This document shows, one piece after another, positions 5,655-33,229 of a stretch of DNA of 64,000 bases. Position 1 is the stretch's first letter. Every line of letters begins with the position of its first letter. Under the pieces are notes generated by a model, which was not told where the DNA came from, made no database searches, and saw only the letters and a program-made list of their open reading frames with translations. The stretch is from positions 74,034-138,033 of the forward strand of contig JARLIA010000005.1 of NCBI GenBank assembly GCA_031291955.1, in the 5' to 3' direction. Source of the DNA: Minisyncoccota bacterium. GTDB lineage: Bacteria; Patescibacteriota; Minisyncoccia; Moranbacterales; UBA2206. The translations under genes and the position numbers were made by a program.

Positions 5655-5691
5655 AGTTAGGTAATAATTTTTTAATTTAAAATTTTATTTG

Positions 5692-7506
5692 TTAAACTTC
5701 TATTACAACCGGCAGAATCATGGGTCTTCTTTCCGTTTTTTGGTAGAGATATTGGCCGACGACTTCCCGGATGTTGTTTTTGACGTAGTCCCAGTTGACG
5801 GCTTGGTCGGGAGAAGTTTTTTGGGCCACTACTTCTTCGACTTTTTTCTTGGTGGCGTTCACGAGATCAAAGTTTTCTTTCACAAAAATAAATCCGCGAG
5901 AAGTGACTTGAGGTTTCCCGATGATCTTTTTCGTTTTGCTGTCGATAACCACGGTGATGACAAACATCCCGTCTTTGGCCAGGAGCTGGCGGTCGCGCAG
6001 CACTACTTGTCCCACGTCGCCCACTCCCAGTCCGTCCACCATGACGTTGGAAAGCGGAATTTTTTCGTTGGTCACCTTGCCGTTGCTGCGATAATCTAAT
6101 TCGATGACCCGGCCGTTTTCGCCAATGAGAATTTTGTCTTCTTTCATTCCGACCGCGAGTCCCAGTTCGCCGTGGAGTTTCAGCATGAAATAGTTGCCAT
6201 GGACGGGAATCAAGTATTTCGGCCGGATGAGATTGATCATCATCTTGAGATCTTCCTGGCGCGCGTGACCGCCAGCGTGGACATCCATCATTTTATAGTT
6301 GATGACTTTGGCGTCGTGGCGATAGATCGTGTCCATAATTCCTTGGACCGTCCGTTCATTTCCCGGAATGACCGAAGACGAAAGGACGAAGGTGTCATTT
6401 TTGTGGACTTTTACGAACCGGTGTTCGCCATTGACGATCCGCATGAGGACCGCATTGGATTCGCCTTGCGAGCCGGTGCAGAGAATGGCCACTTTGTTGT
6501 CGGGATATTCATTGACTTTGGAAATAGGAATGAACGTATTCTTTTTAGTCTGGAGATATCCGAGCGAGCGGGCGATTTCTACATTGGTTTTCATGGAATA
6601 GCCGTCCACGGCCACTTTTCGGCCGTGTTTTTCGGCGGCCGCTACCACCGATTGGATGCGGCTAATGAGCGAGGAGAAGGTGGCAAAAATAAGGCGCCCC
6701 TCCCGGGTCTGTTCAAAGATCTCATCCAGGGTTTTGGCAATCTTGGATTCGGACAGGGAATATCCGGGTGTGCGCGAATCGGTCGAGTCGCTCATGAGGG
6801 CTAGGACATTTTCGCTGCCGAGCCGGGCGATCTTGGCCACGTCGGCCGGTGCGTCAGAGATGGGGGAATGATCGAACTTGAAATCACCAGTGTGGACCAC
6901 GGTGCCGACCGGCGTAGTGATGGCCAGGCCCACCGCGTCGGGGATGGTATGGTTGACGTGGAAAAATTCTATGGAAAACGACCCGAGCCGGATGCGGTCG
7001 ATTTTTTTGACGGTGTGAATATTGAGCGGAGCCTTGTCTTGGTAATCCTCTTGGCGTTTCATAACGATGCCGCGGGTCAGTTCGGTCATATAGATCGGAG
7101 GATTGCCGAGTTTTTCCATCAGGTGCGGAATGGCGCCGATGTGGTCATAGTGTCCATGGGTGATTAAAACGCCGCGGATGTTATTTTCTTTGCCTTTCAA
7201 GTACGTTACGTCCGGGATGAGATAATCGATGCCGGGCATGTCCTCGTCCGGGAATTGCAGTCCCATGTCGACGATGATGATGTCCTGGCCATACTCAAAA
7301 ACGGTCATATTGCGGCCAATCTCCTCGAGGCCACCGAGCGGAATGATCCGGAGACTAGGGTTGCCACGGCCAAAAACGTGCGCCGCTGGCTTTCTCTGGG
7401 CGATGACGCCGGTTTTTATGACCGGGGCAACAGCTAAACCAGTCTGGCCAAAGTCGGCCGGTTCCTTCGGTTTTCTGAACATAAATTTGGAAGTGAAGTT
7501 GCTCAT
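5692..7506 (-). CDS. rnj: Ribonuclease J, second paralog in tandem
   Basis: Motifs present: HGHYDHIG, RIIPLGGLEEIGRNMTV, and the same C-terminal ...ILPVVIEV. The listed ORF begins with TTG, so I placed the start at the first in-frame ATG. Confidence 0.9.
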   Translation of the reverse strand: MSNFTSKFMFRKPKEPADFGQTGLAVAPVIKTGVIAQRKPAAHVFGRGNPSLRIIPLGGLEEIGRNMTVFEYGQDIIIVDMGLQFPDEDMPGIDYLIPDVTYLKGKENNIRGVLITHGHYDHIGAIPHLMEKLGNPPIYMTELTRGIVMKRQEDYQDKAPLNIHTVKKIDRIRLGSFSIEFFHVNHTIPDAVGLAITTPVGTVVHTGDFKFDHSPISDAPADVAKIARLGSENVLALMSDSTDSRTPGYSLSESKIAKTLDEIFEQTREGRLIFATFSSLISRIQSVVAAAEKHGRKVAVDGYSMKTNVEIARSLGYLQTKKNTFIPISKVNEYPDNKVAILCTGSQGESNAVLMRIVNGEHRFVKVHKNDTFVLSSSVIPGNERTVQGIMDTIYRHDAKVINYKMMDVHAGGHARQEDLKMMINLIRPKYLIPVHGNYFMLKLHGELGLAVGMKEDKILIGENGRVIELDYRSNGKVTNEKIPLSNVMVDGLGVGDVGQVVLRDRQLLAKDGMFVITVVIDSKTKKIIGKPQVTSRGFIFVKENFDLVNATKKKVEEVVAQKTSPDQAVNWDYVKNNIREVVGQYLYQKTERRPMILPVVIEV

Positions 7507-7867
7507 AACGAGCAAACTTTGTTAGTTGCTGCGAATTGAAAATAATACGCGGCAATTTTGATTAAAGACTTTATTAATTCAAATCAAGCTATGATTTTTG
7601 AAGCAAAAGATTCAGAAATATTTTCCGAATTGAAGTGAAATAAAAAAAGTGGCGCCTTGATGAAGAGTTGAACTTCAAAGCCAAAAACTATTTTTTGACT
7701 ACTAACCTGTAAGGCAAAAGATTTTGCGAATAATACAAATAATACTAAAGAAGAAAACAAAAAGAAGACAAAAAGCGAAAGACGGAAGAAGAAGCTGATG
7801 AAGCTATTGTATCACAAGAGTATACACGAGGACAGGGAGAAAGTCAAGTCAAGTAGGATAATCAGGC

Positions 7868-17208: not shown

Positions 17209-17457
17209 TCAACGGCTTTTATCGCTGGCCCTTGGTTTTGTTTTCTTAATGATTATTTCTCTAATTTTCAGGACGCTTTTGCCCGAGACTGGCATTTTCG
17301 GTTTCTTCTTGTTTTCTCGCTTCTCAGCCCCGCCTGCCGCGCTATGCCGCCAATAATCATTTTCATATTGACTGGCAAAGTTTTTGTCTAGCATTAACCC
17401 TTTGAAGTTATCCCCAGACGCGGCATTGCGGGCAGGTTTTGTTTTTTTGGCAGACAT
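17209..17457 (-). CDS. Hypothetical basic small protein (82 aa)
   Basis: ORF only. Confidence 0.3.
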   Translation of the reverse strand: MSAKKTKPARNAASGDNFKGLMLDKNFASQYENDYWRHSAAGGAEKRENKKKPKMPVSGKSVLKIREIIIKKTKPRASDKSR

Positions 17458-17506: not shown

Positions 17507-17534
17507 TTGACGAGGATGGCGGTAGTGTTATAAT
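17507..17534 (+). promoter_or_regulatory. Near-consensus sigma-70-type promoter (TTGACG, 16-nt spacer, TATAAT)
   Basis: TTGACG lies at 17507-17512 and TATAAT at 17529-17534. It lies upstream of the 17554 ORF and uvrB. Confidence 0.45.
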
Positions 17535-17553
17535 AACATGCGATTTTAATCTT

Positions 17554-17845: not shown

Positions 17846-20068
17846 ATGGAAAACAAATTCAAAATATCCTCCAAATTCAAGCCCGAAGGCGATCAGCCGC
17901 AGGCGATTGAAAAATTGACCGCGGGGCTTGAGGCTGGAAAAAAGTTCCAGACGCTTTTGGGCGTGACGGGGTCGGGGAAGACTTTTACCATTGCCAACGT
18001 CATTGAAAATATCCAAAAACCGACTTTGGTCATTGCGCCCAACAAGACTTTGGCGGCGCAACTGGCGCAGGAATTTCGGACTTTCTTTCCCAAAAGCGCG
18101 GTGGAATATTTCGTTTCCTATTATGATTATTATCAGCCGGAAGCCTACATCGCTTCCTCCGACACATACATCGAAAAGGAATCCCAGATCAACGACGAGA
18201 TCGACCGGCTTCGCCACGCGGCCACCGCGGCGCTCATGAGTCGCCGCGATGTCATCATTTGCGCTTCGGTGTCGTGTATCTACGGTTTGGGCAGCCCGGA
18301 ATATTATCGGAATATTACGCTGGAATTGGCGGTGGAGGACGGTTATTCGCAGGTTCGGGCGTCCACGCCCGAACCGCATAGTCCTGGTAAAACAAAATTA
18401 TCAGTCAAATCTGAATCGAAAATTTCCGCAGATAATAAAAAATTACCAGAAATGGCAGGTTCAATCGGGACGATTGAACCTGCAAAAAAAAATAATAGGG
18501 ACGAGATTGTAAAAAAATTGATCGACATGCAATATAATCGGAGCGATGTTTTGGCGCGGGGGAAATTCCGGCTGACCGGGAATACTCTGGAAATTATGCC
18601 GCCCGGACGGGAAATTGTAACGAGGATTGAAATGGAAGGGGGCAGTATTAAAAAAATATTCGAGTACGATTTTCTTACCGGCGAGGAACTGGGAAAGCTG
18701 GAAAAAGCGGTCATCTATCCAGCCAAACATTTCGTGGTGCCCGAACCGGTGATGGAAGGCGCTTTGGAAAAAATTCAAAAAGAAATGGAAGAGCAAGTGG
18801 AATTTTTCAAGCGTCAGGGAAAGATTCTGGAAGCGGAAAGGATTTCCCGTCGGACGCGCCAGGACATTGAAATGATGAGGGAAATCGGCTACTGCAATGG
18901 AATTGAAAACTATTCCCGCTTTCTCACTGAACGCCAGCCCGGTGAACCCCCCTACACTTTGATCGATTATTTTCCCGACGATTTTCTCATGGTGATTGAC
19001 GAATCGCATGTGACCGTGCCGCAACTCAACGGAATGTATAACGGCGACCACGCCCGGAAAGTCTCACTGATCGACAACGGCTTCCGCCTGCCTTCGGCTT
19101 TTGATAACCGCCCGCTTAAATTTCCGGAGTTCGAGAAAAAAATAAACCAGCTGATTTTCACGTCGGCGACACCGGCAAAATATGAAATGGAAAAATCAAA
19201 AATAGACCCCCTCTCCCGTAATCGGGAGAGGGTTGGGGAGAGGGCAACGCGGAACTCGGCGCCCTCTCTGTCGCGAGTACGCGACATCTCTCCCGAGTAC
19301 GGGGGAGAGGGAAATATTGTGGAACAAATTATTAGGCCGACCGGACTGATTGATCCAGAGCTGGAAATCAAGCCGACCAGAGGACAGGTGAAAGATGTGA
19401 CGGAGGAGATCAAAAAAATAATCGCCCGGAAGGAGCGGGTGCTTATCACCACGCTGACTAAAAAAATGGCCGAAGACTTGTCGGATTTCTTGAAAGAGAG
19501 CGAAGTGAAAGCTGAATATCTCCATTCCGGCGTGGACACTTTGGACCGGGTGCGGATTTTGGAACAATTGCGCCGGGGAAAATTTGATGTTCTGGTCGGA
19601 GTAAATTTGCTGCGGGAAGGGCTCGATCTTCCCGAAGTTTCTTTGGTGGCGATTCTCGACGCGGACAAAGAAGGATTTTTGCGGAGCGAAACGTCGCTCA
19701 TCCAAACCATCGGCCGCGCCGCGCGGAATGTCAAAGGAAAAGTTATTCTCTACGCCGACACCATTACCGGTTCGATGAAACGAGCTATCGACGAGACAAA
19801 CCGTCGCCGGGCAATCCAGACGGAATATAACAAAAAACATCGTATCACTCCAAAAACCATCAAGAAGAAAATCCAGTCGATCGTCGACCATGAAATCAAA
19901 CCTCAGGTGACGCGCGACTTTTCCCAATTGGAATCATTGGAGGATATGGCCGGCTACATTAAACAACGCGAGCGCGAAATGAAAGACGCGGCCCGGAATT
20001 TGGAATTTGAAAAAGCGGCGATCATCCGGGACGAGATAAGTGAGTTGAGGAAGCTGCAGATAAAATAG
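17846..20068 (+). CDS. uvrB: Excinuclease ABC subunit B, with two in-frame palindrome-bearing insertions
   Basis: Motifs present: GVTGSGKTF, the beta-hairpin region YVSYYDYYQPEAY, the helicase motifs, and the C-terminal UVR domain AAIIRDEISELRKL. The protein is 740 aa, against a typical ~660. Confidence 0.95.
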   Translation: MENKFKISSKFKPEGDQPQAIEKLTAGLEAGKKFQTLLGVTGSGKTFTIANVIENIQKPTLVIAPNKTLAAQLAQEFRTFFPKSAVEYFVSYYDYYQPEAYIASSDTYIEKESQINDEIDRLRHAATAALMSRRDVIICASVSCIYGLGSPEYYRNITLELAVEDGYSQVRASTPEPHSPGKTKLSVKSESKISADNKKLPEMAGSIGTIEPAKKNNRDEIVKKLIDMQYNRSDVLARGKFRLTGNTLEIMPPGREIVTRIEMEGGSIKKIFEYDFLTGEELGKLEKAVIYPAKHFVVPEPVMEGALEKIQKEMEEQVEFFKRQGKILEAERISRRTRQDIEMMREIGYCNGIENYSRFLTERQPGEPPYTLIDYFPDDFLMVIDESHVTVPQLNGMYNGDHARKVSLIDNGFRLPSAFDNRPLKFPEFEKKINQLIFTSATPAKYEMEKSKIDPLSRNRERVGERATRNSAPSLSRVRDISPEYGGEGNIVEQIIRPTGLIDPELEIKPTRGQVKDVTEEIKKIIARKERVLITTLTKKMAEDLSDFLKESEVKAEYLHSGVDTLDRVRILEQLRRGKFDVLVGVNLLREGLDLPEVSLVAILDADKEGFLRSETSLIQTIGRAARNVKGKVILYADTITGSMKRAIDETNRRRAIQTEYNKKHRITPKTIKKKIQSIVDHEIKPQVTRDFSQLESLEDMAGYIKQREREMKDAARNLEFEKAAIIRDEISELRKLQIK

Positions 20069-20217
20069 TGAAAAAAGTTATCCACAGGAGGGCGCTTGCT
20101 CATTCTTGTCGGAGTTCTATAATTGAAACAGGCAAGGTTTGGAAACAAAGATACAATTAATGTTTCCGCGTATGAAATGCTATTTGGCTGGAAAATTAAA
20201 TGGCATTGCAATCATAA

Positions 20218-20244
20218 TGAACACGTTTTAGGCGTGTTTTTTTG
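20218..20244 (+). terminator. Rho-independent terminator downstream of uvrB
   Basis: AACACG-TTTTAGG-CGTGTT is followed by TTTTTTTGTT. Confidence 0.45.
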
Positions 20245-20257
20245 TTCCCCGAAAACC

Positions 20258-20286
20258 CCTTGCAATTTTTCTCGAAACGTGCTATA
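20258..20286 (+). promoter_or_regulatory. Candidate promoter (TTGCAA, 17-nt spacer, TATAGT)
   Basis: The elements are visible in sequence. It would drive the ~330-nt structured region below. Confidence 0.35.
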
Positions 20287-20292
20287 GTCGGC

Positions 20293-20620
20293 CGTTAGGA
20301 TAGGAAGATGGTTCTTTCAAAACTTGGTGCGTTTCAATTCTTAAATTAAACTTAGCTGTCTCACTAAAGACAATATGTATGGATGTTATTTTTAGCGAGG
20401 CAGTTAAGTTCTCAATATAAATTTTGCTCGCAGGAGCCACTTGAGCGAAGCACTCGTGGCATTTATCCGAAAGGATTTATACCATGCGCTCGGGAAAGGC
20501 CACTTCTGGGAAGCACTCGCGGCGGAAATCTCACCGTGCCCTAAAGGAGAGAAAAATTTATCTCTGCCAAGCCTCCGGGAAAGAAAGACATGTCTTTCTT
20601 TCCCATCCTCATTTTTGTTT
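20293..20620 (+). other. Candidate structured RNA or riboswitch-like leader: promoter, internally repeated ~60-nt unit, GNRA hairpin, terminator hairpin
   Basis: Two copies of GCCACTT..G.GAAGCACTCG.GGC are present. There is a GAAA-tetraloop hairpin ATCCGAAAGGAT. A perfect 14-bp hairpin GGGAAAGAAAGACA/TGTCTTTCTTTCCC with a T-rich tail lies at 20582-20615. No protein homology is evident for ORF 20441-20653. Confidence 0.3.
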
Positions 20621-20677
20621 GATTATACGGAAAAAGCAGTTATGCAGTTATAAAGTTTATTAGGAAAGGAGTTTGCC

Positions 20678-20890
20678 ATGTACGCTGCAAATGCGATGAG
20701 TGAGAGTCTGGTTTTGGCGGCAGTAACACTGGCGCCTCAGCCTGAGATGGCAGCAGTTCAGGGGATGTTCTTGTGTCGCCGCTGCGATGATTGTGGCGTT
20801 AGAGCTGATTTAAAATCAGCGGAGGGCAGCAGAGTAGTTCTTCAATGCCCCCGGTGTCAGAGGGAGTACACCTTTTTCAGTAGGGAGTAA
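20678..20890 (+). CDS. Small zinc-ribbon protein (70 aa)
   Basis: Two CxxC pairs are present (CRRCDDCG...CPRCQ). A good RBS (AGGAAAGGAG) lies 7 nt upstream of the ATG. Confidence 0.45.
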   Translation: MYAANAMSESLVLAAVTLAPQPEMAAVQGMFLCRRCDDCGVRADLKSAEGSRVVLQCPRCQREYTFFSRE

Positions 20891-21027
20891 TAAAAATGAA
20901 AACATTGAGGATTGAGACCGTGCCGGTAATCGGGACTTGTCAAAAGCATTGCTGACGAGTCCCTTTAAATTTGTCTAAAAATAAATACTAATGTAGAATA
21001 TGGCAGTAACTAATAAGAATAAAATAA

Positions 21028-22065
21028 ATGACGAACATGACGAAAAAAATAATCCTCATCGTGGTGATTGTGATTGTCGCGCTGGGGCTGGCGGGGTATA
21101 AATTTGCCAAGCCGGATTTTTCCAAGATTTTTGCCAAAAGCCAGACGACTAAGGTTCTGACGCCAGACCAGGCTAAAGTCAAAGCCCTGGATTATATCGA
21201 CAATAATCTGGTGCAAAAGGGCACAAAAGTAAGCGTGAAAAACATTGCTGAAGCGAACGGTCTTTATAAATTGGACCTGGATGTCAGCGGCCAGACCATT
21301 ACAGCCTATATGACCGAGGACGGTTCGCAGTTTTTTCCGAACGCTATGGACATGAATGCCGCGCCGGCCAAGCCAGCGGCGGCCGATCAGCAGCAAGCCG
21401 CCCAACAGCCGATTCCCAAAACAGACACGCCAAGCGTTCAACTTTTTGTGATGAGCTATTGTCCTTATGGCACGCAGATAGAAAAAGGGATTTTGCCGGC
21501 TCTTTCCGCTTTGGGAAGCAGTGTGAAATTTAATCTTGAATTTGTCGATTATTCCATGCACAACGATGCTTCGACCGGCGATCAGAAAGAACTCAACGAA
21601 AATTTGCGTCAGTATTGCATCCAGAAGCTCCAGCCGGATAAATTGGGAACTTACTTGAATTGCTTTTTGCAAAAAGGCCAGGGCACGGAAAGCGCTTGTA
21701 TGACCCAAGCCGGTGTGGACGCGGCGCCGGTCGCGACTTGTATGACAGCGACCGACAACCAATACAGCGTCAGTAAGAACTTTAAAGATCAAAGCACCTA
21801 CAATGGTCAGTTCCCGACGTTCAAAGTCGACGAAGCGGATAATCAGAAATATAACGTTCAAGGCTCGCCGACTTTGGTGATCAATGGAGTGGTTGATCAG
21901 GCTGGAAACCGTGATTCGGCTTCGCTGCTTAAGGATATTTGTTCAGCTTTCAATACAGCACCGGCCGCTTGCAGTACCGCTAAACTTTCTTCCACCGCGC
22001 CGTCGCCGGGATTCGGCACCGGTACGGACACGAGCGGTTCAAGCGCTAGTTGCGCGACGAAATAG
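21028..22065 (+). CDS. Membrane-anchored thioredoxin-fold (DsbA-like) thiol-disulfide oxidoreductase
   Basis: There is an N-terminal TM helix. The CPYG active-site motif occurs in VMSYCPYGTQ. Further Cys pairs lie downstream. Confidence 0.6.
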   Translation: MTNMTKKIILIVVIVIVALGLAGYKFAKPDFSKIFAKSQTTKVLTPDQAKVKALDYIDNNLVQKGTKVSVKNIAEANGLYKLDLDVSGQTITAYMTEDGSQFFPNAMDMNAAPAKPAAADQQQAAQQPIPKTDTPSVQLFVMSYCPYGTQIEKGILPALSALGSSVKFNLEFVDYSMHNDASTGDQKELNENLRQYCIQKLQPDKLGTYLNCFLQKGQGTESACMTQAGVDAAPVATCMTATDNQYSVSKNFKDQSTYNGQFPTFKVDEADNQKYNVQGSPTLVINGVVDQAGNRDSASLLKDICSAFNTAPAACSTAKLSSTAPSPGFGTGTDTSGSSASCATK

Positions 22066-22150: not shown

Positions 22151-22241
22151 TCATTTGCGATTAGTTATCCACAGCCGGCGCTTGCGATGATATTTAATCA
22201 GTGCTAGAATAACACTGTAATAAACTTAGATAATAAAAAAT

Positions 22242-22919
22242 ATGCAAAACACACAATCGCTTACCGGAAAGCAAAAGAACCTGCTCGAAACGATCCGGGA
22301 ATATGTTGACCAGCGAAATGAAAATCCGACCAGTTATCGCCTGCATAAATACTTGGAAGCGCAGGGCGTGAGAGACAGTTTGAAGTCTGTCATGCAAGTC
22401 ATTGAAGCTTTGGAGAAAAAAGATCTGGTGAAACGTGACGGCGACAAGCGGCTCTATCTCATTGAGAACGGCAATTATGCCAATCTGAAAAACATTTTTT
22501 CCGTGCCGGTCTATGGCTTGGCCTCTTGCGGCGAAGCCTTGGCCTACGCCGAGGACAACGTGGATGGGTTTTTGCAAATCTCCAAAGCCTTGTTTCGCGG
22601 GGCCGACTCGGCCAAACTTTTCGCCGTCAAAACTTTGGGTGATTCGATGGACAAAGATGGCATAAACGATGGCGATTACGTTATCTTTGAAAAATACGAA
22701 TACGACAAAGGAGAGGAGCTGGAAGGGAAAATCGTGGTGGCGGTCATCAATGGAATGGCGACGATCAAGAGATATAAAAAAGTGAGCGACGAAATCATCG
22801 GTCTTTTCCCGCGCTCGAAAAACACCGTCCACCAGCCGATCTTCATCCATTCTTCCGACTCGATCCTGGTCGCCGGGATTTTCCGGAAAGTGCTGCCGGT
22901 GAAATACGTAAGTTTGTAG
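22242..22919 (+). CDS. lexA: LexA repressor (S24 peptidase)
   Basis: An N-terminal winged-helix DNA-binding domain is present. The catalytic Ser lies in GDSM and the catalytic Lys in ATIKRYKK. A cleavage-site-like LASCG is present. Confidence 0.85.
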   Translation: MQNTQSLTGKQKNLLETIREYVDQRNENPTSYRLHKYLEAQGVRDSLKSVMQVIEALEKKDLVKRDGDKRLYLIENGNYANLKNIFSVPVYGLASCGEALAYAEDNVDGFLQISKALFRGADSAKLFAVKTLGDSMDKDGINDGDYVIFEKYEYDKGEELEGKIVVAVINGMATIKRYKKVSDEIIGLFPRSKNTVHQPIFIHSSDSILVAGIFRKVLPVKYVSL

Positions 22920-23014
22920 GCTTGCTTAAAATATTTTTCCGTACTACCCTGTATTAGATAAAAGTAAATACTAAGTACCCGATCTGGGGAAATTTTTGGC
23001 GTTGGGAAATTTTT

Positions 23015-26000
23015 ATGGACAAAATCATCATAAAAGGCGCGCGGGAGCATAATTTGAAGAACGTCGACTTGGAGCTGCCGCGGAATAAATTTATCGTTTT
23101 TACGGGAATTTCTGGGTCAGGGAAGTCGACCATGGCTTTTGATACTATTTTTGCCGAGGGGCAACGGCGCTATCTCGAAAGTCTTTCCAGTTACGCTCGG
23201 CAGTTTTTGGGGCAAATGAATAAGCCTGACGTGGACTATATTGAAGGTCTGTCGCCGGCCATTTCCATCGACCAGAAAGCGGCGTCCCACAATCCGCGTT
23301 CGACGGTTGGAACGGTGACGGAAATCCACGATTATTTGCGATTGCTATATGCCAAGATCGGCCGGCCACATTGTCCGATCTGCTCCCGGGAAATTACGAA
23401 GTTGTCGACAGATGAGATTGTTGATCGGATTTTGGAGATGTGCGCCGCGAAACCTCATCCGCCCCGGAGTACTGGGGCACCTTCTCCTTATAAAGGAGAA
23501 GGAGATAATGGAAGGGGCTGTTCTATCGAAATTCTATCGCCGGTGGTTCGCCAGCGGAAAGGGGAATATTCGACGATGCTGGCTGAGATGTTCCGGCGGG
23601 GGTTTTCCCGCGCTTACGTCAATGGGGAAAAATACGAACTGTCGGCCAAGATCGGAGACGAGTTGGAATTGGCCCGCTACAAAAAACATAATATTGATAT
23701 CGTGGTAGATGAGGTGGAGATATCTAGCGACAACATTTCGCGAATATTTGAAGGAGTGGAAAAGGCGCTGAAGTTGTCGGACGGACTGGTCAAGATAAGA
23801 TCCGAAATCCGAAATACGAAATCCGAAACAATGTCAAAATCAAAAATTAAAAATTCAAAACAAAACAATACGGAAATTGTTTTCAACCAAAAACTTTCTT
23901 GTCCGATCCATGAGATTGAGTTTCCGGAGTTGGAGCCGCGTTTGTTTTCTTTCAACAGTCCGTTTGGCGCTTGTCCGGCTTGCGAAGGATTGGGAACGAA
24001 AAAAGAAATCGACCCGGCGCTGGTGGCGCCGGATAAAAACAAAACGATTGCTGAGGGTGGCATCTTCCCTTGGAGCTACAAACGGAATAACTGGCAAGGG
24101 TCGGTTCTCCGGGCGGTTTGCAATCATTTCCACATCAAAGACAATGTGCGCCTCCGTGACCTTTCGGAAGATGACCTCAACATCTTAATGTTCGGCGGAC
24201 CGGATGCGACCGATATGATAGATAAGGAAGAAGCGGAAGAAATACCCGTCACTTTGAAATCAAAAACCGGTTCAAGCTGGAAATATTACATGACCTGGCG
24301 CGGAGCGGTCGGATATCTTCAAGATCGATATTTCAAGACCGATTCGGATGCGGTGCGGGCGGATATTGAAAAATATATGTCGCAAAATCCGTGTTCGGTC
24401 TGTCACGGCGCGCGTTACAAAAAAGAAGTCTTGCTGGTGACGGTCGGCGAATCCCGCCCGCAACGCTTCGCTAACGCAAGTGTTAGCTTGCGTAGCGATG
24501 CGGGCGGGAAAAATATTGTCGAAGTCTCAAATGTGTCTGTGGCTGAGACGCTTAAATTTTTCGAAAGACTGGAATTGAATAAAAATGAGCAGATCATCGC
24601 CGGGAGAATTTTGAAGGAAATTATTAATCGCCTAGGCTTTTTGGAAAACGTGGGACTGGGATATTTGACTTTGGCCAGATCCGCGGCGACACTAGCCGGC
24701 GGGGAAGCGCAACGGATCCGCTTGGCATCGCAAATCGGTTCGGGTCTCACCGGCGTTTTGTATATTTTGGACGAACCGTCGGTCGGTCTTCACTCGCGCG
24801 ACAACACTAAATTGCTCGAGACGCTTTTTCATCTGCGCGATCTGGGAAACACGCTAATCGTGGTTGAGCACGATGAAGAGACGATGCGGGAGGCCGACTA
24901 TTTGGTTGACATCGGACCGGGAGCGGGAAAATTGGGAGGTAAAATTGTGGCGCATGGCACGCCGGTAGAAGTTATTCGCGATAAAAAATCTTTAACCGCG
25001 GCATATTTGCGGGGTGACGCGAAAATAGAAATGCCGAAATTCCGCCGGCCAGTCAAGAATAAAAAAACGATTGTTGTCCGCGGCGCGCGCGAACACAATT
25101 TGAAAAACATTACCGTCGAGTTTCCTTTAAAAGTTTTGACGTGTGTGACGGGCGTGTCCGGCTCGGGGAAATCCACATTGGTAGAGGACATCCTTTATAA
25201 AGCCTTGGCGTCAAAAATCATGCGGACGCTCGACCGGCCGGGGAAACATTCGGAGATTGTCGGCACGCAATATGTTAACAAAGTGATCATGATCGACCAG
25301 TCGCCGATCGGTCGGACGCCGCGCTCCAATCCGGCGACTTATACCGGGCTCTTTACGCCGATCCGGGAATTATTTTCCCAGACCCGGGACGCCAAATCCA
25401 AGGGTTATGGTCCGGGGCGCTTTTCGTTCAACATCCGGGGCGGACGCTGTGACAACTGCCAAGGCGACGGCCAGCTTAAAATTGAGATGCAGTTCATGCC
25501 GGATGTCTATTTGCCTTGCGATGTCTGTCACGGAAAAAGATACAACAGTGAGACCTTGAAAGTGAAATACAAGGACAAAAACATTTCCGAAGTTTTGGAC
25601 ATGACGGTCAGCGAAGGGCGCGAGTTTTTTGAGAATTTTCCGGCTATTCACGACAAGCTGGCGGTTTTGGAAGACGTCGGCTTGGGCTATATCCAACTCG
25701 GGCAGTCCGCCACCACACTTTCCGGCGGGGAAGCGCAAAGGATAAAACTGGCCACGGAACTGGCAAGGAGGGCGACCGGCGACACTTTGTATATTCTGGA
25801 CGAACCGACGACTGGCCTCCATTTTGACGACATTAAAAAACTTTTGAATGTTTTGAACCGCTTGGTCGATGCCGGCAACACAGTGGTGGTGATCGAACAC
25901 AATTTGGACGTCGTCAAAACCGCCGATTGGATCATTGACTTGGGTCCGGAAGGCGGAGAAGGCGGCGGAAAAATTATCGTTACCGGTCCGCCGGAAGAAG

Positions 26001-26062
26001 TGGCGAAATATCATAAGGAAAGCTGGACGGGAAAGTATCTGAGAGATGTATTGAAAAAGTAG
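23015..26062 (+). CDS. uvrA: Excinuclease ABC subunit A, with two in-frame palindrome-bearing insertions
   Basis: Both ABC modules are present ([18 protein letters not shown]) with LSGGEAQRI signatures and Zn-finger Cys pairs. Length is 1015 aa. Confidence 0.95.
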   Translation: MDKIIIKGAREHNLKNVDLELPRNKFIVFTGISGSGKSTMAFDTIFAEGQRRYLESLSSYARQFLGQMNKPDVDYIEGLSPAISIDQKAASHNPRSTVGTVTEIHDYLRLLYAKIGRPHCPICSREITKLSTDEIVDRILEMCAAKPHPPRSTGAPSPYKGEGDNGRGCSIEILSPVVRQRKGEYSTMLAEMFRRGFSRAYVNGEKYELSAKIGDELELARYKKHNIDIVVDEVEISSDNISRIFEGVEKALKLSDGLVKIRSEIRNTKSETMSKSKIKNSKQNNTEIVFNQKLSCPIHEIEFPELEPRLFSFNSPFGACPACEGLGTKKEIDPALVAPDKNKTIAEGGIFPWSYKRNNWQGSVLRAVCNHFHIKDNVRLRDLSEDDLNILMFGGPDATDMIDKEEAEEIPVTLKSKTGSSWKYYMTWRGAVGYLQDRYFKTDSDAVRADIEKYMSQNPCSVCHGARYKKEVLLVTVGESRPQRFANASVSLRSDAGGKNIVEVSNVSVAETLKFFERLELNKNEQIIAGRILKEIINRLGFLENVGLGYLTLARSAATLAGGEAQRIRLASQIGSGLTGVLYILDEPSVGLHSRDNTKLLETLFHLRDLGNTLIVVEHDEETMREADYLVDIGPGAGKLGGKIVAHGTPVEVIRDKKSLTAAYLRGDAKIEMPKFRRPVKNKKTIVVRGAREHNLKNITVEFPLKVLTCVTGVSGSGKSTLVEDILYKALASKIMRTLDRPGKHSEIVGTQYVNKVIMIDQSPIGRTPRSNPATYTGLFTPIRELFSQTRDAKSKGYGPGRFSFNIRGGRCDNCQGDGQLKIEMQFMPDVYLPCDVCHGKRYNSETLKVKYKDKNISEVLDMTVSEGREFFENFPAIHDKLAVLEDVGLGYIQLGQSATTLSGGEAQRIKLATELARRATGDTLYILDEPTTGLHFDDIKKLLNVLNRLVDAGNTVVVIEHNLDVVKTADWIIDLGPEGGEGGGKIIVTGPPEEVAKYHKESWTGKYLRDVLKK

Positions 26063-26067
26063 AAATT

Positions 26068-27327
26068 ATGACGACCATCCTCCAAAAGCTGAAAAACCTG
26101 CCTCAATCACCGGGGGTGTATATTTTCTATGATAAAAATAGAAATATTTTGTACGTGGGAAAAGCGACGTCGCTTAAAGATAGGGTTGGTTCGTATTTTC
26201 AGAATAAGATTGGGGCGGTGCGGACGATTGAGATGTATATGAATGAAGTGACGGATCTGGAGATCAAGAAAACCGACACGGTTTTGGAAGCGTATATTTT
26301 GGAACAATCTTTGATCAAAAAACTTCAGCCGAAATATAACGCGATGGGGAAAGACGATAAGTCATTTACGTACGTACTTCTTTCTAAGGAAGAATTTCCG
26401 AGATTCGCGGTGGTACGGGAAACTGATTTGGATAGTGTAAAATCATCGCCCCGTGGGGGGCAAAAATCTTTGCCCCCCACGGCGAAGGTTTATGGTCCGT
26501 ATACGTCGAAACGGCAAATTGAGGCGGCCTTGAAAATCTTACGGAAAATTTTTCCCTATCACAACCGGCCGGAACATTCGGAGTCCCGGTGTTTTGATTA
26601 TCATCTTGGGCTTTGCCCCGGACCGTATGACGGGAAGATTTCCAAAAAAGAATACGTCAAAAATATCCGGGCGATAAAAATGATCTTGGAAGGGAAGAAG
26701 AAAGGACTTATAAACCGGATGAAAAAAGAGATGGAAGAATGTTCAGACAAGGCTGAATTTGAAAAGGCGGCGGAGGTGCGGAACAGGATTTTTGCGTTGC
26801 AACACATCCAGGACGTGGCGCTGATATCTGATCATAGAGACGCAATTAATCGCGTCTCTGTGGACGACGCAATGATGCGCATCGAAGGTTATGATATTTC
26901 CAATATTTCCGGGAAATTTGCGACTGGTTCGATGGTGGTGTTTGATAATTCAGACGGTGAAATGCAGCCGAATAAATCGCAATATCGTAAATTCAAAATC
27001 AAAAATGTTGAAGGCGCCAATGACGTGGGGGCAATGGAAGAAATGCTTACCAGGAGATTTCGGAACAATTGGCCGCGGCCGAATTTGATTTTGCTCGACG
27101 GCGGAGCCGGGCATTTGAATATGGCGCGGAAAGTCCTGCGGAATCACAAAATAGAAATTCCCTTGCTGGCGGTGGCCAAAGGGCCGGCGCGGAAAAAACT
27201 GGATCTGCGAAGTTTCGGGACCGTGCCGGAACTGCCAAAAAATATCATCGAACAAGTGAGAAACGAAGCGCATCGCTTCGCGATCAGTTATCATAGGAAA
27301 TTGAGAGGTAAATCGTTCACGGATTAA
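26068..27327 (+). CDS. uvrC: Excinuclease ABC subunit C, short form lacking the C-terminal (HhH)2 domain
   Basis: A GIY-YIG N-terminus is present (PGVYIFYDKNRNILYVGKA). A UVR motif (FEKAAEVRNRIFALQ) follows. The RNase-H-like endonuclease domain is present (ILLDGGAGHL). The protein ends at 419 aa. Confidence 0.8.
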   Translation: MTTILQKLKNLPQSPGVYIFYDKNRNILYVGKATSLKDRVGSYFQNKIGAVRTIEMYMNEVTDLEIKKTDTVLEAYILEQSLIKKLQPKYNAMGKDDKSFTYVLLSKEEFPRFAVVRETDLDSVKSSPRGGQKSLPPTAKVYGPYTSKRQIEAALKILRKIFPYHNRPEHSESRCFDYHLGLCPGPYDGKISKKEYVKNIRAIKMILEGKKKGLINRMKKEMEECSDKAEFEKAAEVRNRIFALQHIQDVALISDHRDAINRVSVDDAMMRIEGYDISNISGKFATGSMVVFDNSDGEMQPNKSQYRKFKIKNVEGANDVGAMEEMLTRRFRNNWPRPNLILLDGGAGHLNMARKVLRNHKIEIPLLAVAKGPARKKLDLRSFGTVPELPKNIIEQVRNEAHRFAISYHRKLRGKSFTD

Positions 27328-27407
27328 GCCTTGAAGTGGCCAATGCTTTGACATCTCTTGCCAAATCCTCTACAATACATCTCTAGTAAGCAATCTTCTT
27401 TCAAACT

Positions 27408-30221
27408 ATGCCCACTCAAAAATCTTCTCCTAAAAATACTTTCTCACTGAAGGATAAAATCGTCATCCGTGGCGCGCGGGTGAATAATTTGAAGAACATC
27501 GACGTGGACATTCCGCGGGATAAATTGGTCGTAGTGACAGGTCTTTCCGGGTCGGGGAAATCTTCTTTGGCTTTTGACGTGGTCTACGCCGAAGGCAATC
27601 GGCGGTATCTGGAAGGCATGTCGAGCTACGCCCGGCAGTTTTTGGATGTTTCGGCTAAACCGGACGTGGACAAAATAGAGAATTTGAGCCCGACCATCTC
27701 AATTGATCAAAAAAGCTTGAGTCGTTCACCTCGCTCGACGGTCGGGACGCTCACGGAAATTTACGATTATTTGCGAGTGCTCTACGCCAAAGTGGGAACG
27801 CCCTATTGTCCTCATTGTCTCTTGCCGATGGGGCGCAAAAAGAACCAGGAAATTTTGGAGGAAATTTTGGTTTTGCCGGAAAATACCCAAGTGGCGGTCC
27901 TGGCTCGGATAAAAAATGAAGGTCAGAGTGTTAAGGATATTCTCAAAAACATCAGTCAGCTTGGTTATGCCCGGGCGCGGGTTGGCGGTAAAATCGTCTT
28001 GATTGCCGACGCCTTGCTTTTTCCGGAAGAAAACTTGAGCGGCAACGTCGAAATCGTGGTTGACCGGATCAATCTCAAGAAAAAAAATCCCGATCACGAA
28101 CGGATGTTGGATTCTATTGAGACTGCTTTTAAATTGGGGAAAGGTTTTATGGCGGTCGCAATCGATAATGGTGAGAGCCGGATTTATAATCAAAATTTTG
28201 TTTGCAGCAACTGCTATTTCAAAATTTCGGAAATCACGCCCAAGAATTTTTCTTTCAACAGTCCCGAAGGCGCCTGCGAACATTGCGCGGGAATGGGTAC
28301 TATCCAGGAAGTGGACGAGGATCTGATCATTCCTAACAGAAATCTCACTTTGGCCGAAGGAGCTATTATGCCGCTCGCCAAGTCCGGCGGCCGGGCTGGG
28401 TATCTCGATACTCTCACCAAGATCGGCGAGAAAGCGGGTTTTTCCGTGAATGAACCGGCGCGGAACATTTCCAAGGAAAATTTGAAAGTTATTTTTCATG
28501 GTTTTGGTGTGCCTGGTACTCCTGGTTATTTTGAGGGAGTGGTGCCGATGATTCGAAAAAAATATACCGAAGCGGCCACTCAGACGGCCCGGACCGACAT
28601 CGAAAAATATATGCTGGAAAAAGATTGTCCCGAGTGTGGAGGCAAGCGTTTGAAAAAAGAATATTTATCCGTCTTGATGAGCGGGAAATCGATCGACGAT
28701 TTGGTCCGGATGGATATCGATACTCTCATTTTATTTTTAGAAAATTTACGGACTGCCGATTTGAGTGCCGCCAAAGCGGAAATCGTGGCGCCATTGGCAA
28801 AAGAAATGATCGCCAAAGCCAAGGCGCTCAAGAACGTCGGCTTGGAATATCTGTCACTTTCCCGCCGGGCCGATTCCATTTCCGGCGGCGAAGGTCAGCG
28901 CATCCGGCTCGCAACTCAAATTGGATCGGAACTTTCCGGTATTATCTATGTTCTGGACGAACCGTCTATCGGTCTCCATTCCCGAGACAATGAAAAGTTG
29001 ATCGACACGATGGAAAAGCTGAAAGAGAACGGCAATTCTCTGATCGTGGTCGAGCATGACAAAGACATTATCGAGTGCGCCGATTGGGTGATCGACATGG
29101 GTCCCGGGGCAGGGGAGTTCGGCGGGGAAGTTATCTTTTCCGGTTCGGTGAAAAAAATGGAGAGCGTCGCGACATCCACTGCCAAGTTCCTTTCCGGCCG
29201 GGAAAAAGTAACGGTTAAGAAGAAACCGCGAACGGCATCGAAGAACTTTTTGGAAATCCTGGGTGCCGCAGAACACAATTTGAAAAATATCGACGTCCGG
29301 ATTCCACTCGGCCGTTTTGTTGCCGTCTCGGGCGTGTCCGGTTCGGGGAAATCCACTTTGGTAACCGACATTCTGGCTCGAGAGCTGGCCCGGCATTTTT
29401 GGAAGGCTAAGAAAAATCCCGGAAAGCATGATAAAATCACTGGTCTTAACCGCTTGGATAAAGTGATTAATATCGATCAATCGCCGATCGGCCGGACGCC
29501 GCGTTCCAATGCCGCCACCTACACCGGTGTCTTTTCACTTATTCGGGAACTTTTCTCCGCCACCGAAGAGGCGAAAAAACGGGGCTACGATGCCAGTCGC
29601 TTCAGTTTTAATGTCCGGGGCGGCCGTTGCGAAGATTGCCAAGGCGACGGAACAAAAAAGATCGAGATGCATCTTTTGCCGGATATGTATGTCAAATGCG
29701 AAACTTGCCAGGGAACGCGCTATAACGCCAAGACGCTTGATATTGAATATCAGGGTGCTACCGTCGCCCAGGTGCTGGATATGAGTGTTTCCTACGCGCT
29801 TCGCTTTTTCCATAAATCGCCGCTTATCGCGGCTAAACTGAAAACGCTGGAAGAAGTCGGCCTGGGCTACATCAAACTGGGACAGAGCGCCACAAATCTT
29901 TCCGGCGGAGAAGCGCAGCGGATAAAATTGGCTACCGAGCTCGCCCGGAAATCGACCGGCAAGACTTTGTATATTTTAGATGAACCGACCATCGGGTTGC
30001 ACTTTGAAGATGTGCGGAAATTGCTTCAGGTGCTGGACGCGCTGGTCGAAAAAGGCAACACTGTTCTTGTGGTGGAACATAATTTGGACGTCATCAAGAA
30101 CGCCGACTGGGTGATTGATCTCGGGCCGGAAGGCGGAAACGGGGGCGGCGAAATTGTTTACGCCGGCGAACCGAAGGGGCTGAAGAAAGCGAAGAGGAGT
30201 TGGACAGGAAAATATCTGTAA
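27408..30221 (+). CDS. uvrA: Excinuclease ABC subunit A paralog (937 aa) without palindromic insertions
   Basis: Full two-module UvrA architecture is present ([18 protein letters not shown], two LSGGE signatures). Confidence 0.9.
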
Positions 30222-30360: not shown

Positions 30361-31326
30361 TTGATGACCAATGGATTATCAAAAAAAATTCTCGCTACTA
30401 TTATTTATTACGATATTTTAGATTATCCGCTCACTTCCTTTGAAGTCTGGAAGTATCTTCTGGCAGTGAACGGTGAGCAGGAATCAGTGAATAATAAAAA
30501 GGAGAAAATGAGTTTGGCTGAGGTCATGAAAGAGTTGGAAAGTGAAGACTTGCAAAAACATACTGAGGAATATCGCGGATTCTATTTTTTAAAAGGAAGA
30601 AGAGATCTTGTTGCCCAAAGACTGGAGCGGAACAAAATTTCCGAGCGGAAGCTTAAAAAAATACAGCAGACGGTTTTTTGGCTGCGAATGGCGCCGTTTG
30701 TCCGGATGGCGGCGGTCACGGGACGAGTGGCCATGAAGAACGCCACTAGAAAAAGCGATCTGGATCTTCTGATCGCGCTTAAAAACAATCGCATTTTTAC
30801 CGGGCGACTGCTGGTTACGCTTCTGGTGCATGCTTTGGGTCGGCGGCGTCATGGAAGCAAAATGACTGATCGGATCTGCCTCAACTATTTTATTACCGAT
30901 GGTTCGCTTGAAATCGGATCGCACGATATTTTTTCCGCTCACGAATATTCTTTCACCGTGCCGGTCTTTGGCGGCGAAGTTTTTCAGGAGTTTCAAAAAG
31001 AGAACAGCTGGATCGCGGAACATAAACCCGCTTTCGCGCCGGACGTGGTTTTGGGGATAAAAATTTTGGAAGATACTTCTTGGGTTAGGGCGGTCAGGGA
31101 GTTTGGGGAAAAAATATTCAACTCTGACAAACTGGAGGCGCGCCTCAAAAAATGGCAGATGGACCGGATTGTCGCTGACCCGCGGACTTATCAAAAAGGG
31201 AGCGGGGTGACGGCTGGTAGCGACGCGTTGGTTTTTCTGCCCGATCCGCAGGGACCGCGGGTTTATGAAAAATATCGTGAGAGGGTTGACGCTTTGGCGG
31301 AATCAGCTACAATATATAGTGGTTAG
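30361..31326 (+). CDS. Hypothetical protein with a possible nucleotidyltransferase (Pol-beta-like) motif
   Basis: GRVAMKNATRKSDLDLLIAL resembles the G[SG]x9-13DxD NTase motif. Confidence 0.4.
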   Translation: MMTNGLSKKILATIIYYDILDYPLTSFEVWKYLLAVNGEQESVNNKKEKMSLAEVMKELESEDLQKHTEEYRGFYFLKGRRDLVAQRLERNKISERKLKKIQQTVFWLRMAPFVRMAAVTGRVAMKNATRKSDLDLLIALKNNRIFTGRLLVTLLVHALGRRRHGSKMTDRICLNYFITDGSLEIGSHDIFSAHEYSFTVPVFGGEVFQEFQKENSWIAEHKPAFAPDVVLGIKILEDTSWVRAVREFGEKIFNSDKLEARLKKWQMDRIVADPRTYQKGSGVTAGSDALVFLPDPQGPRVYEKYRERVDALAESATIYSG

Positions 31327-31435: not shown

Positions 31436-33073
31436 ATGAGTAAAATAATCAAGTACGACGAAGAAGCCCGGGAAAAAATCAAGGCCGGCATCGATGCTGT
31501 AGCCGACGCGGTAAAAATCACGCTTGGGCCGCGAGGACGGAATGTTCTTTTGGATAAGGGTTTTGGAACGCCGATTGTCACCAATGACGGCGTTTCTATA
31601 GCCAAGGAAATCGAACTGGAAGACAAGTTTGAGAATATGGGAGCGGAACTTATCAAAGAAGTAGCCAATAAGACCAATGATGTGGCTGGTGACGGAACAA
31701 CAACTGCGACGGTCCTTACCCAAGCTATTATCGCGGAAGGTCTGAAACTGATGGCGGCCGGTATGAATCCAATTATGGTACGCCAGGGAATCGAAGAAGC
31801 CAAAAATGAAATAATAAAAGAACTCAAGAATAATTCCAAGGCTGTCTCCGGGCGTGAAGAGATTGCACAGGTAGCCACCATCTCGGCCGAAAATCCAGAA
31901 ATGGGTAAAATGATTGCCGACGTGATGGCTGAGACCGGACGGGACGGCGTCATTACTGTTGAAGAATCACAGACCTTCGGGTTGTCCAGGGAAATCGTAG
32001 AGGGGACCAGTTTTGACAAAGGCTACATTTCTCACTATATGATGACCGACAGCGAATCTTTGAAAGCGGAATTGAAAGATCCGTATATCATCATCACTGA
32101 CAAGAAAATTTCCAGCATTCAGGACATCCTGCCGCTTCTGGAAAAGATCGCGGCCTCCGGGAAAAAGGAAATTGTCATCATTGCCGATGACGTGGAAGGG
32201 GAGGCGCTGACGACCTTGGTGTTGAATAAATTGCGAGGTATTTTGAATGTTTTAGCGGTCAAAGCCCCCGAATTCGGCGACACCAAAAAGGAAATGTTGG
32301 AAGATATTGCTATTCTCACCGGCGGGAAAGTAATTACTGAAGAGCGCGGAATGAAAATTGAAAACGCCACACTCTCTGACCTTGGCCAAGCGACTAAAGT
32401 TATTGCTACAAAGGACTTGACCACTGTTGTCAGCGGAAAAGGCAAGAAGAAAGAAATTGAAGCGCGTATCTTGCAACTCAAAACTCGGATCGAAAAATCG
32501 GACAGCAAGTATGACAAGGAAAAACTGCAAAAGCGTTTGGCGAAAATTTCCGGCGGCGTAGCGGTCATTAAAGTCGGGGCGGCCACCGAAACAGAACTGA
32601 CTTATATGAAACACAAAATGGAAGACGCGCTGGCAGCGACGCGCGCGGCTTACGCCGAAGGGGTGGTGGCCGGCGGCGGGACGGCTCTTTTCAAAGCGGC
32701 GGTCGCGGTCGCCAGCAAAATGGAAAACAGCCGGAAAAGCGACGAATACAAAGCTGGCTTTGCCATCCTGGTGAGAGCTTTGGAAGAACCGCTTCGCCAG
32801 ATTGCCAAAAATGGCGGGAAAAAAGATCCGGGCGTAGTGGCCAATGAAGTTTCTAAAAATAAAGGCAAGAACTATGGCTACAATGCTCGAGAAGATCAAT
32901 ATGTTGAAGATATGATAAAGGCTGGTATTATTGATCCGCTGAAAGTGACGCGGACGGCGCTTGAAAACGCGGTGAGCGTGGCAGCTATTCTACTCACCAC
33001 CGAAGCAGCTGTGGCCGAAAAGCCGGCGGAAAAACACGAGTCAGGCATGCCATCGATGCCGATGGGAATGTAA
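31436..33073 (+). CDS. groEL: Chaperonin GroEL (60 kDa)
   Basis: AREKIKAGIDAVADAVKITLGPRGRNVLL and DGTTTATVL are present. The C-terminus is Met/Gly-rich (MPSMPMGM). No groES gene lies immediately upstream. Confidence 0.95.
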   Translation: MSKIIKYDEEAREKIKAGIDAVADAVKITLGPRGRNVLLDKGFGTPIVTNDGVSIAKEIELEDKFENMGAELIKEVANKTNDVAGDGTTTATVLTQAIIAEGLKLMAAGMNPIMVRQGIEEAKNEIIKELKNNSKAVSGREEIAQVATISAENPEMGKMIADVMAETGRDGVITVEESQTFGLSREIVEGTSFDKGYISHYMMTDSESLKAELKDPYIIITDKKISSIQDILPLLEKIAASGKKEIVIIADDVEGEALTTLVLNKLRGILNVLAVKAPEFGDTKKEMLEDIAILTGGKVITEERGMKIENATLSDLGQATKVIATKDLTTVVSGKGKKKEIEARILQLKTRIEKSDSKYDKEKLQKRLAKISGGVAVIKVGAATETELTYMKHKMEDALAATRAAYAEGVVAGGGTALFKAAVAVASKMENSRKSDEYKAGFAILVRALEEPLRQIAKNGGKKDPGVVANEVSKNKGKNYGYNAREDQYVEDMIKAGIIDPLKVTRTALENAVSVAAILLTTEAAVAEKPAEKHESGMPSMPMGM

Positions 33074-33105: not shown

Positions 33106-33129
33106 AAAACCCCGTTTAGGCGGGGTTTT
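33106..33129 (+). terminator. groEL rho-independent terminator
   Basis: AAAACCCCG-TTTAGG-CGGGGTTTT plus a T-run. Confidence 0.55.
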
Positions 33130-33229
33130 TGATTTTTAAAATTGGCTGTGGATAACTTTTTTTGGCAAGATATGACAAAACTGAATTTTTGTTATATAAT
33201 TCAAGCAATAAAAAATAAAATAAAAAACA

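Follow-up and report, generated by a model that had tools for sequence, protein, structure and literature searches.

Single DnaA-box 12-mers as probable promoter-upstream operator sites at lexA and two other promoters of a Moranbacteria-like CPR bacterium

The DNA analysed here, a stretch of 64 kb that is referred to as a whole as the window, belongs to an ultra-small, Moranbacteria-like CPR bacterium. Homologues of its LexA (65-92% identity) are all annotated as Candidatus Moranbacteria/Moraniibacteriota or Parcubacteria, and the same sequence is present in the MAG GCA_031291895.1. GC skew is positive throughout the window, with no change of sign, and no dnaA signatures were found when the window and all loci from relatives were searched for them; on both counts, the window is not an origin region. 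The genes surrounding the sites under study are as follows:

17846-20068, + strand: uvrB (stop codon 20066-20068)
21028-22065: gene of 345 aa without known function
22242-22919, + strand: lexA, with an S24 peptidase and a LexA DNA-binding domain (NCBIfam/Pfam)
23015-26062, + strand: uvrA, 1015 aa (NCBIfam/Pfam)
26068-27327, + strand: short uvrC-like gene, 419 aa (NCBIfam/Pfam)
27408-30221, + strand: second uvrA, 937 aa (NCBIfam/Pfam)
30361-31326: gene of 321 aa without known function
31436-33073: groEL (terminator 33106-33130)
33230-35971, + strand: signal-peptide protein of 913 aa, no family match

The short gaps between lexA, the first uvrA, the uvrC-like gene and the second uvrA suggest that these four genes (22242-30221, + strand) form one operon. 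The short UvrC-like protein carries GIY-YIG, UVR and RNase H-like endonuclease domains and is without the C-terminal helix-hairpin-helix region, and the arrangement in which two full-length uvrA genes flank it (23015-30221) is kept in relatives. On the 3' side of the 913-aa gene lie a histidine kinase, a response regulator and pilB, pilC, pilM and pilN. Elsewhere in the window, two tandem RNase J paralogues of 599 and 607 aa stand side by side (3855-7515, - strand). Between uvrB and lexA there are also Cys-rich open reading frames of ~60-70 aa with a zinc-ribbon-like CxxC...CxxC pattern (20678-20890, + strand, in the window; 4387-4585 in the relative L004), for which no family match was found in the window or in relatives. 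A search of the whole window against Rfam at gathering thresholds returned tRNAs only.

An exact search of the window with the 12-mer AGTTATCCACAG gave three matches, which we call copies a, b and c, and perfect TTATCCACA cores occur at no other site in the window. All three cores agree with the DnaA-box consensus TTATCCACA at nine of nine positions. The three copies, and one candidate for a weaker site, are located at:

20076-20087, + strand: copy a, exact match to AGTTATCCACAG (core TTATCCACA at 20078-20086)
22163-22174, + strand: copy b, exact match
33146-33157, - strand: copy c, exact match (the + strand reads CTGTGGATAACT)
17405-17417, + strand: candidate weaker fourth site AAGTTATCCCCAG, with one core mismatch and full flanks

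An earlier, sequence-only reading of this DNA had proposed that a 12-mer containing a DnaA box recurs at three places, and the exact search bears this out, except that the first copy lies at 20076-20087, one base to the left of the 20077-20088 given there. The recurrence goes beyond chance, as had been supposed, since 100 dinucleotide-preserving shuffles of the window yielded no match to AGTTATCCACAG. The three sites are also intergenic, located after the uvrB stop codon, before the lexA ATG, and between the groEL terminator and the 913-aa gene. The further proposal that identity extends into the flanks was only partly correct: copies a and c share a run of A 5' of the 12-mer, whereas copy b reads GCGATT there, and the bases on the 3' side are GA in copy a and CC in copies b and c. 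When the copies are anchored on the 12-mer, identity ends at ~12-13 bases and the flanks beyond are unrelated; MAFFT alignment of the 300-nt flanks of the three copies found no meaningful homology, and neither terminal repeats nor similarity beyond ~13 nt were found around them. The copies are single boxes, spaced 2.1 kb and 11 kb apart. When one mismatch is allowed in TTATCCACA, the window contains 19 sites against 12.5 expected, barely an excess, so that only the perfect sites are conspicuous. The candidate fourth site, AAGTTATCCCCAG, lies ~90 nt upstream of the uvrB -35 and within the first codons of a minus-strand 82-aa open reading frame; it falls within chance expectation (~0.3 per window) and may be a weak site or a chance match.

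Copy b is preceded by an intrinsic terminator and ends 68 nt before the lexA ATG, with its core ending 8 nt before the lexA -35. Two elements follow it:

22182-22210, + strand: lexA promoter from the promoter scan (-35 TTGCGA at 22182-22187, 17-nt spacer, -10 TAGAAT at 22205-22210)
22200-22216, + strand: putative LexA operator AGTGCTAGAATAACACT, a palindrome AGTGNTA-N3-TANCACT over the lexA -10, distinct from the DnaA box

For comparison with relatives, we assembled four loci from species genomes, found with the short UvrC as query, and 80 metagenomic loci, found with a LexA alignment as query; dropping near-duplicates left a non-redundant set of 73 loci (0.89 Mb). The architecture of the lexA promoter could be aligned across 44 relatives. 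Among 67 non-redundant lexA promoters, the 24 nt before the -35 contain a perfect box in 48 cases and a box with one mismatch in another six. The offset to the -35 is narrow, at 7-10 nt for forward boxes (49 cases) and 5-7 nt for inverted ones (5 cases), so that 54 of the 67 promoters have a box 5-10 nt before the -35, the conserved promoter position expected of a regulon site under purifying selection. The link to SOS genes drawn in the sequence-only reading is thus upheld by the box adjoining the -35 in the lexA promoters of these relatives. The six one-mismatch variants at this position include TTATTCACA, TTTTCCACA, TTATCCGCA and TTCTCCACA, four that we take to be within the tolerance of DnaA. 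The spacer between box and -35 (22175-22181 and 20088-20095 in the window, and at lexA promoters of relatives) is 7-9 nt long and G/C-rich, for example GGGGGGGGC or GGAGGGCGC, in intergenic DNA that is otherwise A/T-rich.

Sequence surrounding the box at lexA promoters is not conserved, box orientation differs between lineages, and the position of the box is kept in species with 65-85% LexA identity although the flanks diverge. Because position is kept while the surroundings diverge and orientation varies, the lexA box is maintained by selection rather than by passive inheritance. The changes of orientation fit an asymmetric monomer site that was gained repeatedly. Strength of the -35 also differs with the presence of the box, in that a perfect TTGACA -35 is found in 11 of 13 box-less lexA promoters versus 20 of 54 box-bearing ones (Fisher p=0.004, a comparison confounded by the shared ancestry of the relatives).

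The palindrome over the -10 behaves as a separate element. The lexA promoters of relatives carry AGTGATA-N3-TATCACT over the -10 together with a CAGTGATA half-site at the -35, and 73 of the 93 matches to AGTGNTA-N3-TANCACT across the loci are in lexA upstream regions, so this palindrome is likely to be the LexA operator of the lineage. It is unchanged in the 13 lexA promoters without a DnaA box, and this persistence where the box is absent argues that another factor binds at the box. A LexA operator would be a dyad or repeat over the core promoter, whereas the 12-mer lacks symmetry and is placed before the -35. The Gram-positive SOS box GAAC-N4-GTTC has two matches in the window, both genic and attributable to chance, and none near lexA. 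A weaker, operator-like copy, AGTGTTATAATAACATG (17524-17540), overlies the -10 of a promoter upstream of uvrB. Within ±10 kb of lexA the operator is found almost only at lexA itself (L004-L087), which suggests that the SOS regulon is very small.

The first base of copy a lies 8 nt past the uvrB stop codon, there is no terminator in the stretch between uvrB and the box, and the core of the copy ends 9 nt before a -35. The features downstream of it are:

20096-20123, + strand: sigma-70-type promoter, read from the sequence (-35 TTGCTC at 20096-20101, 16-nt spacer, -10 TATAAT at 20118-20123)
20130-20243, + strand: candidate small RNA of ~110 nt, its start placed from the -10 and its terminator (20219-20243) taken from the terminator scan

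The sequence-only reading had placed this copy just after uvrB; it is not a feature of the uvrB 3' end but an upstream element of the next promoter, which would drive a short, terminated RNA. The candidate RNA folds with a z-score of -2.6 and carries an A-rich motif, AAAYAAAWATAMAAT, and a permissive Rfam search of 20000-21100 returned nothing credible. Its counterparts in relatives (for example 2160-2290 in L004 and ~3740-3860 in L029) are ~110-160 nt long; the terminator stem CACGYTTWRGCGTG is kept in sequence in eight relatives, and RNAalifold applied to eight candidate small RNAs gave support for the terminator hairpin alone. The pairing of box and promoter on the 3' side of uvrB recurs in relatives, where the box is mostly inverted and located 4-6 nt before a weak -35, and the -35 hexamers of these small-RNA promoters are all weak, of the form TTGCnn.

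A second conserved promoter follows at 20260-20288 (+ strand; TTGCAA-17-TATAGT), from which an untranslated-looking transcript of ~320 nt would extend (promoter and transcript together cover 20260-20616). The motif GCCACTT..GAAGCACTCG.GGC occurs twice in this transcript, which also has a boxA-like GGTTCTTTCAAAAC (relatives have GTTCTTTGAAAAC) and, at 20577-20604, a terminator hairpin; it may be an uncharacterised structured RNA or a leader.

Copy c is inverted and located 15 nt past the groEL terminator (33106-33130), between this terminator and the start of the 913-aa gene at 33230. Two -35 elements can be read from the sequence in its promoter region:

33162-33200, + strand: promoter region of copy c, the best promoter having -35 ATGACA at 33172-33177, a 17-nt spacer and -10 TATAAT at 33195-33200
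33162-33167, + strand: weaker alternative -35 TTGGCA, 4 nt after the 12-mer

This promoter is predicted to drive the 913-aa secreted protein, which heads the type IV pilus cluster, and not groEL. Coupling of copy c to the chaperone gene, which the sequence-only reading had considered, is therefore not indicated, as the box is 3' of the groEL terminator and 5' of the promoter of the 913-aa gene. In one syntenic relative (L090), the stretch separating groEL from a homologue of the 913-aa protein (44% identity) contains AAGTTATCAACAGG, with one mismatch; more distant homologues (L088, L089 and L091) are found in other gene contexts, and no box was found with them.

Perfect boxes number 123 across the window and all loci combined (1.02 Mb), where chance would give 8-12; intergenic DNA makes up 12.6% of this sequence but holds 93 of the boxes. 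No intergenic 12-mer is as frequent in the 73 non-redundant loci as AGTTATCCACAG, which has 50 intergenic and 9 genic occurrences. Intergenic DNA contains it about once per 2 kb, for the most part near lexA, and since all loci were chosen around lexA this is only a rough guide to genome-wide density. The flanks of intergenic boxes are strongly biased, with A at -2 in 93%, G at -1 in 85% and G at +1 in 76%. A strong -35/-10 pair starts 7-11 nt after the core of 42 of the 80 intergenic boxes, in forward orientation, and 3-7 nt after the core of another 12, in inverted orientation; such a promoter is found at 8% of random intergenic positions, versus the 54 of 80 boxes that are phased in this way.

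Most of the non-redundant boxes (77 of ~99) are in the uvrB-lexA-(nrdR) neighbourhood. Away from the lexA cluster, 590 kb contain 22 perfect boxes where ~5-7 are expected, nine of them intergenic and six with the full 12-mer, and these far-off boxes precede assorted genes, such as rpoB and genes for small proteins without known function. Because the box is found at lexA, on the 3' side of uvrB and at nrdR, with only modest enrichment elsewhere, the element appears to be a specific operator with a limited regulon rather than a general promoter component. The two most distant loci obtained with the UvrC query (L006 and L007) have no lexA gene in the cluster, and no perfect boxes were found in them. 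A search of all loci for clusters of at least four relaxed boxes within 400 bp found none, and groups of at least three boxes in a few hundred bp, as in oriC, datA, DARS or the B. subtilis DnaA-box clusters, are likewise missing.

In a sister subclade (L055-L085; for example 10830-11282 in L073 and 11359-13554 in L070), lexA is directly followed by nrdR and nrdD, the latter encoding the anaerobic ribonucleotide reductase. A perfect box is located within 260 nt upstream of 15 of the 17 nrdR genes of this subclade, while in one more the box lies at 280 nt; of the 15, one is an nrdR gene that does not adjoin lexA. Here the box lies ~40-50 nt upstream of the -35, a looser arrangement than the phasing elsewhere. 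The nrdR promoter itself shows a conserved extended -10 (TTGTGGTATAAT), palindromes resembling the NrdR box, and a hairpin with the -35 in its 3' arm. Conservation in orthologous intergenic regions, on which the sequence-only reading had made its proposal depend, is seen before lexA and before the small RNA gene after uvrB, and relatives also keep the box before nrdR.

We consider it likely, from the sequence comparisons above, that the three 12-mers are single high-affinity DnaA boxes that serve as promoter-upstream operator sites, and that DnaA probably helps to control DNA-repair and nucleotide-supply genes in this lineage. The 12-mer AGTTATCCACAG is identical to the E. coli oriC R4 box including its flanks, and the oriC/mioC stretch with GAGTTATCCACAGTAG agreed at 100% with E. 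coli chromosomes. The specificity of DnaA in this lineage is assumed from its conservation in other bacteria, and TTATCCACA is the universal high-affinity DnaA box, common to E. coli, Vibrio, Pseudomonas and Bacillus (PMC4285127). The genes concerned, the lexA-uvrA operon and, in relatives, nrdR-nrdD, are of a kind known to be DnaA targets: E. coli DnaA regulates nrdAB and binds upstream of nrdD, uvrB (DARS1) and polA (PMC11317965; PMC8203912), and it co-regulates uvrB, recN and dinJ together with LexA (PMC6015884).

In the mechanism we propose, DnaA would bind AGTTATCCACAG as a monomer, centred at about -47 to -50, or one helical turn further upstream at copy c, and the bound protein would modulate RNA polymerase at the lexA operon, at the small RNA gene, and at the first gene of the surface-protein/type IV pilus cluster. 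At the lexA promoter the box would work beside the separate palindromic LexA-type operator over the -10, so that the operon could respond to two signals, with LexA reporting DNA damage and DnaA the state of replication. As to direction, activation or some assistance to the promoter seems to us somewhat likelier than repression, since the box is placed outside the core promoter, the -35s after uvrB are weak, and TTGACA is commoner in box-less lexA promoters. The precedent at E. coli SOS genes is repression (PMC6015884), and single perfect boxes in E. coli are often empty in vivo, with 13 of 32 bound and paired boxes favoured (PMC11317965). On our reading, DnaA would share in the regulation of SOS/excision-repair and ribonucleotide-reductase genes, possibly as an activator. 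A stronger version, in which DnaA of Moranbacteria-type CPR bacteria is a required co-activator at lexA, and at nrdR in sister lineages, with the phased box offsetting a weakened -35, is put forward only tentatively and seems to us doubtful. Moranbacteria-type CPR bacteria have very few transcription factors.

Several other explanations of the boxes were weighed against this one. DnaA might bind the boxes and yet use them as roadblocks to read-through at uvrB, lexA and groEL, or as chromosomal titration sites that buffer free DnaA; both activities are described for E. coli (PMC11317965; PMC12371093), many boxes are located 3-30 nt past an upstream stop codon (that of uvrB in the window and relatives, that of lexA in the nrdR subclade), and copy a has no terminator between itself and uvrB. 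However, neither function needs the tight spacing to the -35, 7-10 nt for forward and 5-7 nt for inverted boxes, a spacing repeated at dozens of independent promoters; copies b and c have intrinsic terminators before them in any case, and multi-box clusters like those of datA, DARS and B. subtilis are seen in no locus. We regard this explanation as unlikely. It is similarly improbable that the 12-mer is the site of a different, lineage-specific protein, such as a regulator of the DNA-repair cluster, with a likeness to the DnaA box that is coincidental or convergent. The concentration of 77 of ~99 boxes near uvrB-lexA-(nrdR) and the reach of the selected flanks (A, G ... G) beyond the classical 9-mer would suit such a protein, but a nine-of-nine consensus match with R4-like flanks is improbable as coincidence, boxes are also present at unrelated promoters such as that of rpoB, and the kinds of gene concerned (nrd, excision repair/SOS) are those of known DnaA regulons. 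Of the six boxes with one mismatch at lexA, moreover, four presumably remain within what DnaA tolerates. The sequence-only reading had left room for another factor; this has become less likely given the exact DnaA consensus, the R4-like flanks and the association with nrdR-nrdD, and that the factor is DnaA itself we infer.

An auxiliary LexA half-site, belonging to an extended SOS operator, could account for the box accompanying the lexA promoter, and there is a loose likeness between TATCCACAG and the operator half-site TATCACTG. The two align only with a 1-bp insertion, though, and the box is not palindromic; it is present at promoters that are free of the operator (copies a and c, and nrdR), the operator is unchanged where the box is absent, and the operator stays as it is where the orientation of the box flips, all of which makes a LexA half-site very unlikely. 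We attach next to no weight to the view that the three copies reflect chance recurrence, a dispersed repeat or mobile-element remnant, or a DNA-uptake sequence, despite the fact that three identical 12-mers could be copies of one element and that the organism has genes of the type IV pilus/competence type. Chance is contradicted by the empty shuffles, and both chance and a repeat by a position kept at 65-85% LexA identity while the flanks diverged. A dispersed repeat or mobile-element remnant was ruled out, since identity in the anchored comparison covers only 12-13 nt and terminal repeats are lacking, and with it falls the small dispersed repeat suggested in the sequence-only reading. A DNA uptake sequence was ruled out as well: the density is far too low and the copies are too strictly intergenic, with 9 genic copies in 778 kb where an uptake sequence would be very dense, coding DNA included.

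In the stronger version, with DnaA as a required co-activator, the replication initiator would rank above LexA and NrdR in the network that maintains the genome, how far excision repair and dNTP supply are expressed would depend on replication status, and the small RNA driven by the box after uvrB would add another arm to the circuit. On the reading we favour, the lexA promoter would be a compact two-input promoter, with a DnaA box and a LexA-type operator, and in the tiny genomes of CPR bacteria the link between replication, SOS and dNTP supply would be wired directly into lexA and nrdR. This suggests that the link of replication initiation to SOS and dNTP supply is either ancient or repeatedly re-invented. 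Almost nothing is known of gene regulation in uncultured CPR/Patescibacteria, and a strongly conserved cis-element with a candidate regulator may be of use there, since AGTTATCCACAG beside a -35 could serve as a sequence tag by which DnaA regulons and origins are predicted from CPR metagenome bins. Our literature search found no account of DnaA boxes in Patescibacteria, Parcubacteria or CPR bacteria; an earlier mention in work on the SOS network is possible, and Sanchez-Osuna et al. reportedly studied the SOS network of Patescibacteria in 2017.

Among known systems, the E. coli origin provides a match in sequence, the 12-mer being identical to R4 of the oriC R1/R4 pair with its flanks. In contrast to oriC, the sites described here are isolated, with no box cluster accompanied by an unwinding element and no dnaA nearby. 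E. coli DARS1, in the upstream region of uvrB, and datA are alike in having DnaA boxes outside the origin, in the former case next to uvrB. DARS and datA need at least three boxes in a defined arrangement, whereas only single boxes, and no cluster, are present here. Regulation of nrd genes, as in E. coli nrdAB and nrdD and in the B. subtilis and Caulobacter regulons (PMC8203912; PMC11317965), is similar in that high-affinity boxes lie upstream of nrd promoters. In the relatives, however, the 12-mer precedes the repressor gene nrdR and occurs as a single box, compared with the paired boxes of E. coli, and the window itself, unlike relatives with nrdR-nrdD, has no nrd genes. A functional parallel is the co-regulation of E. 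coli SOS genes (Wurihan et al., 2018; PMC6015884), where a DnaA box and a LexA operator are likewise combined in the promoter region of an excision-repair/SOS gene, so that replication initiator and SOS repressor meet at shared targets. DnaA regulon sites and joint regulation by DnaA and LexA are thus already known from E. coli; what stands out here is that the site is very highly conserved, keeps a fixed phasing, is placed at lexA itself, and occurs in a poorly understood lineage with reduced genomes. E. coli SOS genes have several boxes, one of which overlaps the LexA box, and DnaA represses them, whereas the promoter described here, in a CPR host, has one perfect box upstream of the -35 and clear of the operator, and the genes it would control are lexA itself, the two uvrA genes and the short uvrC.
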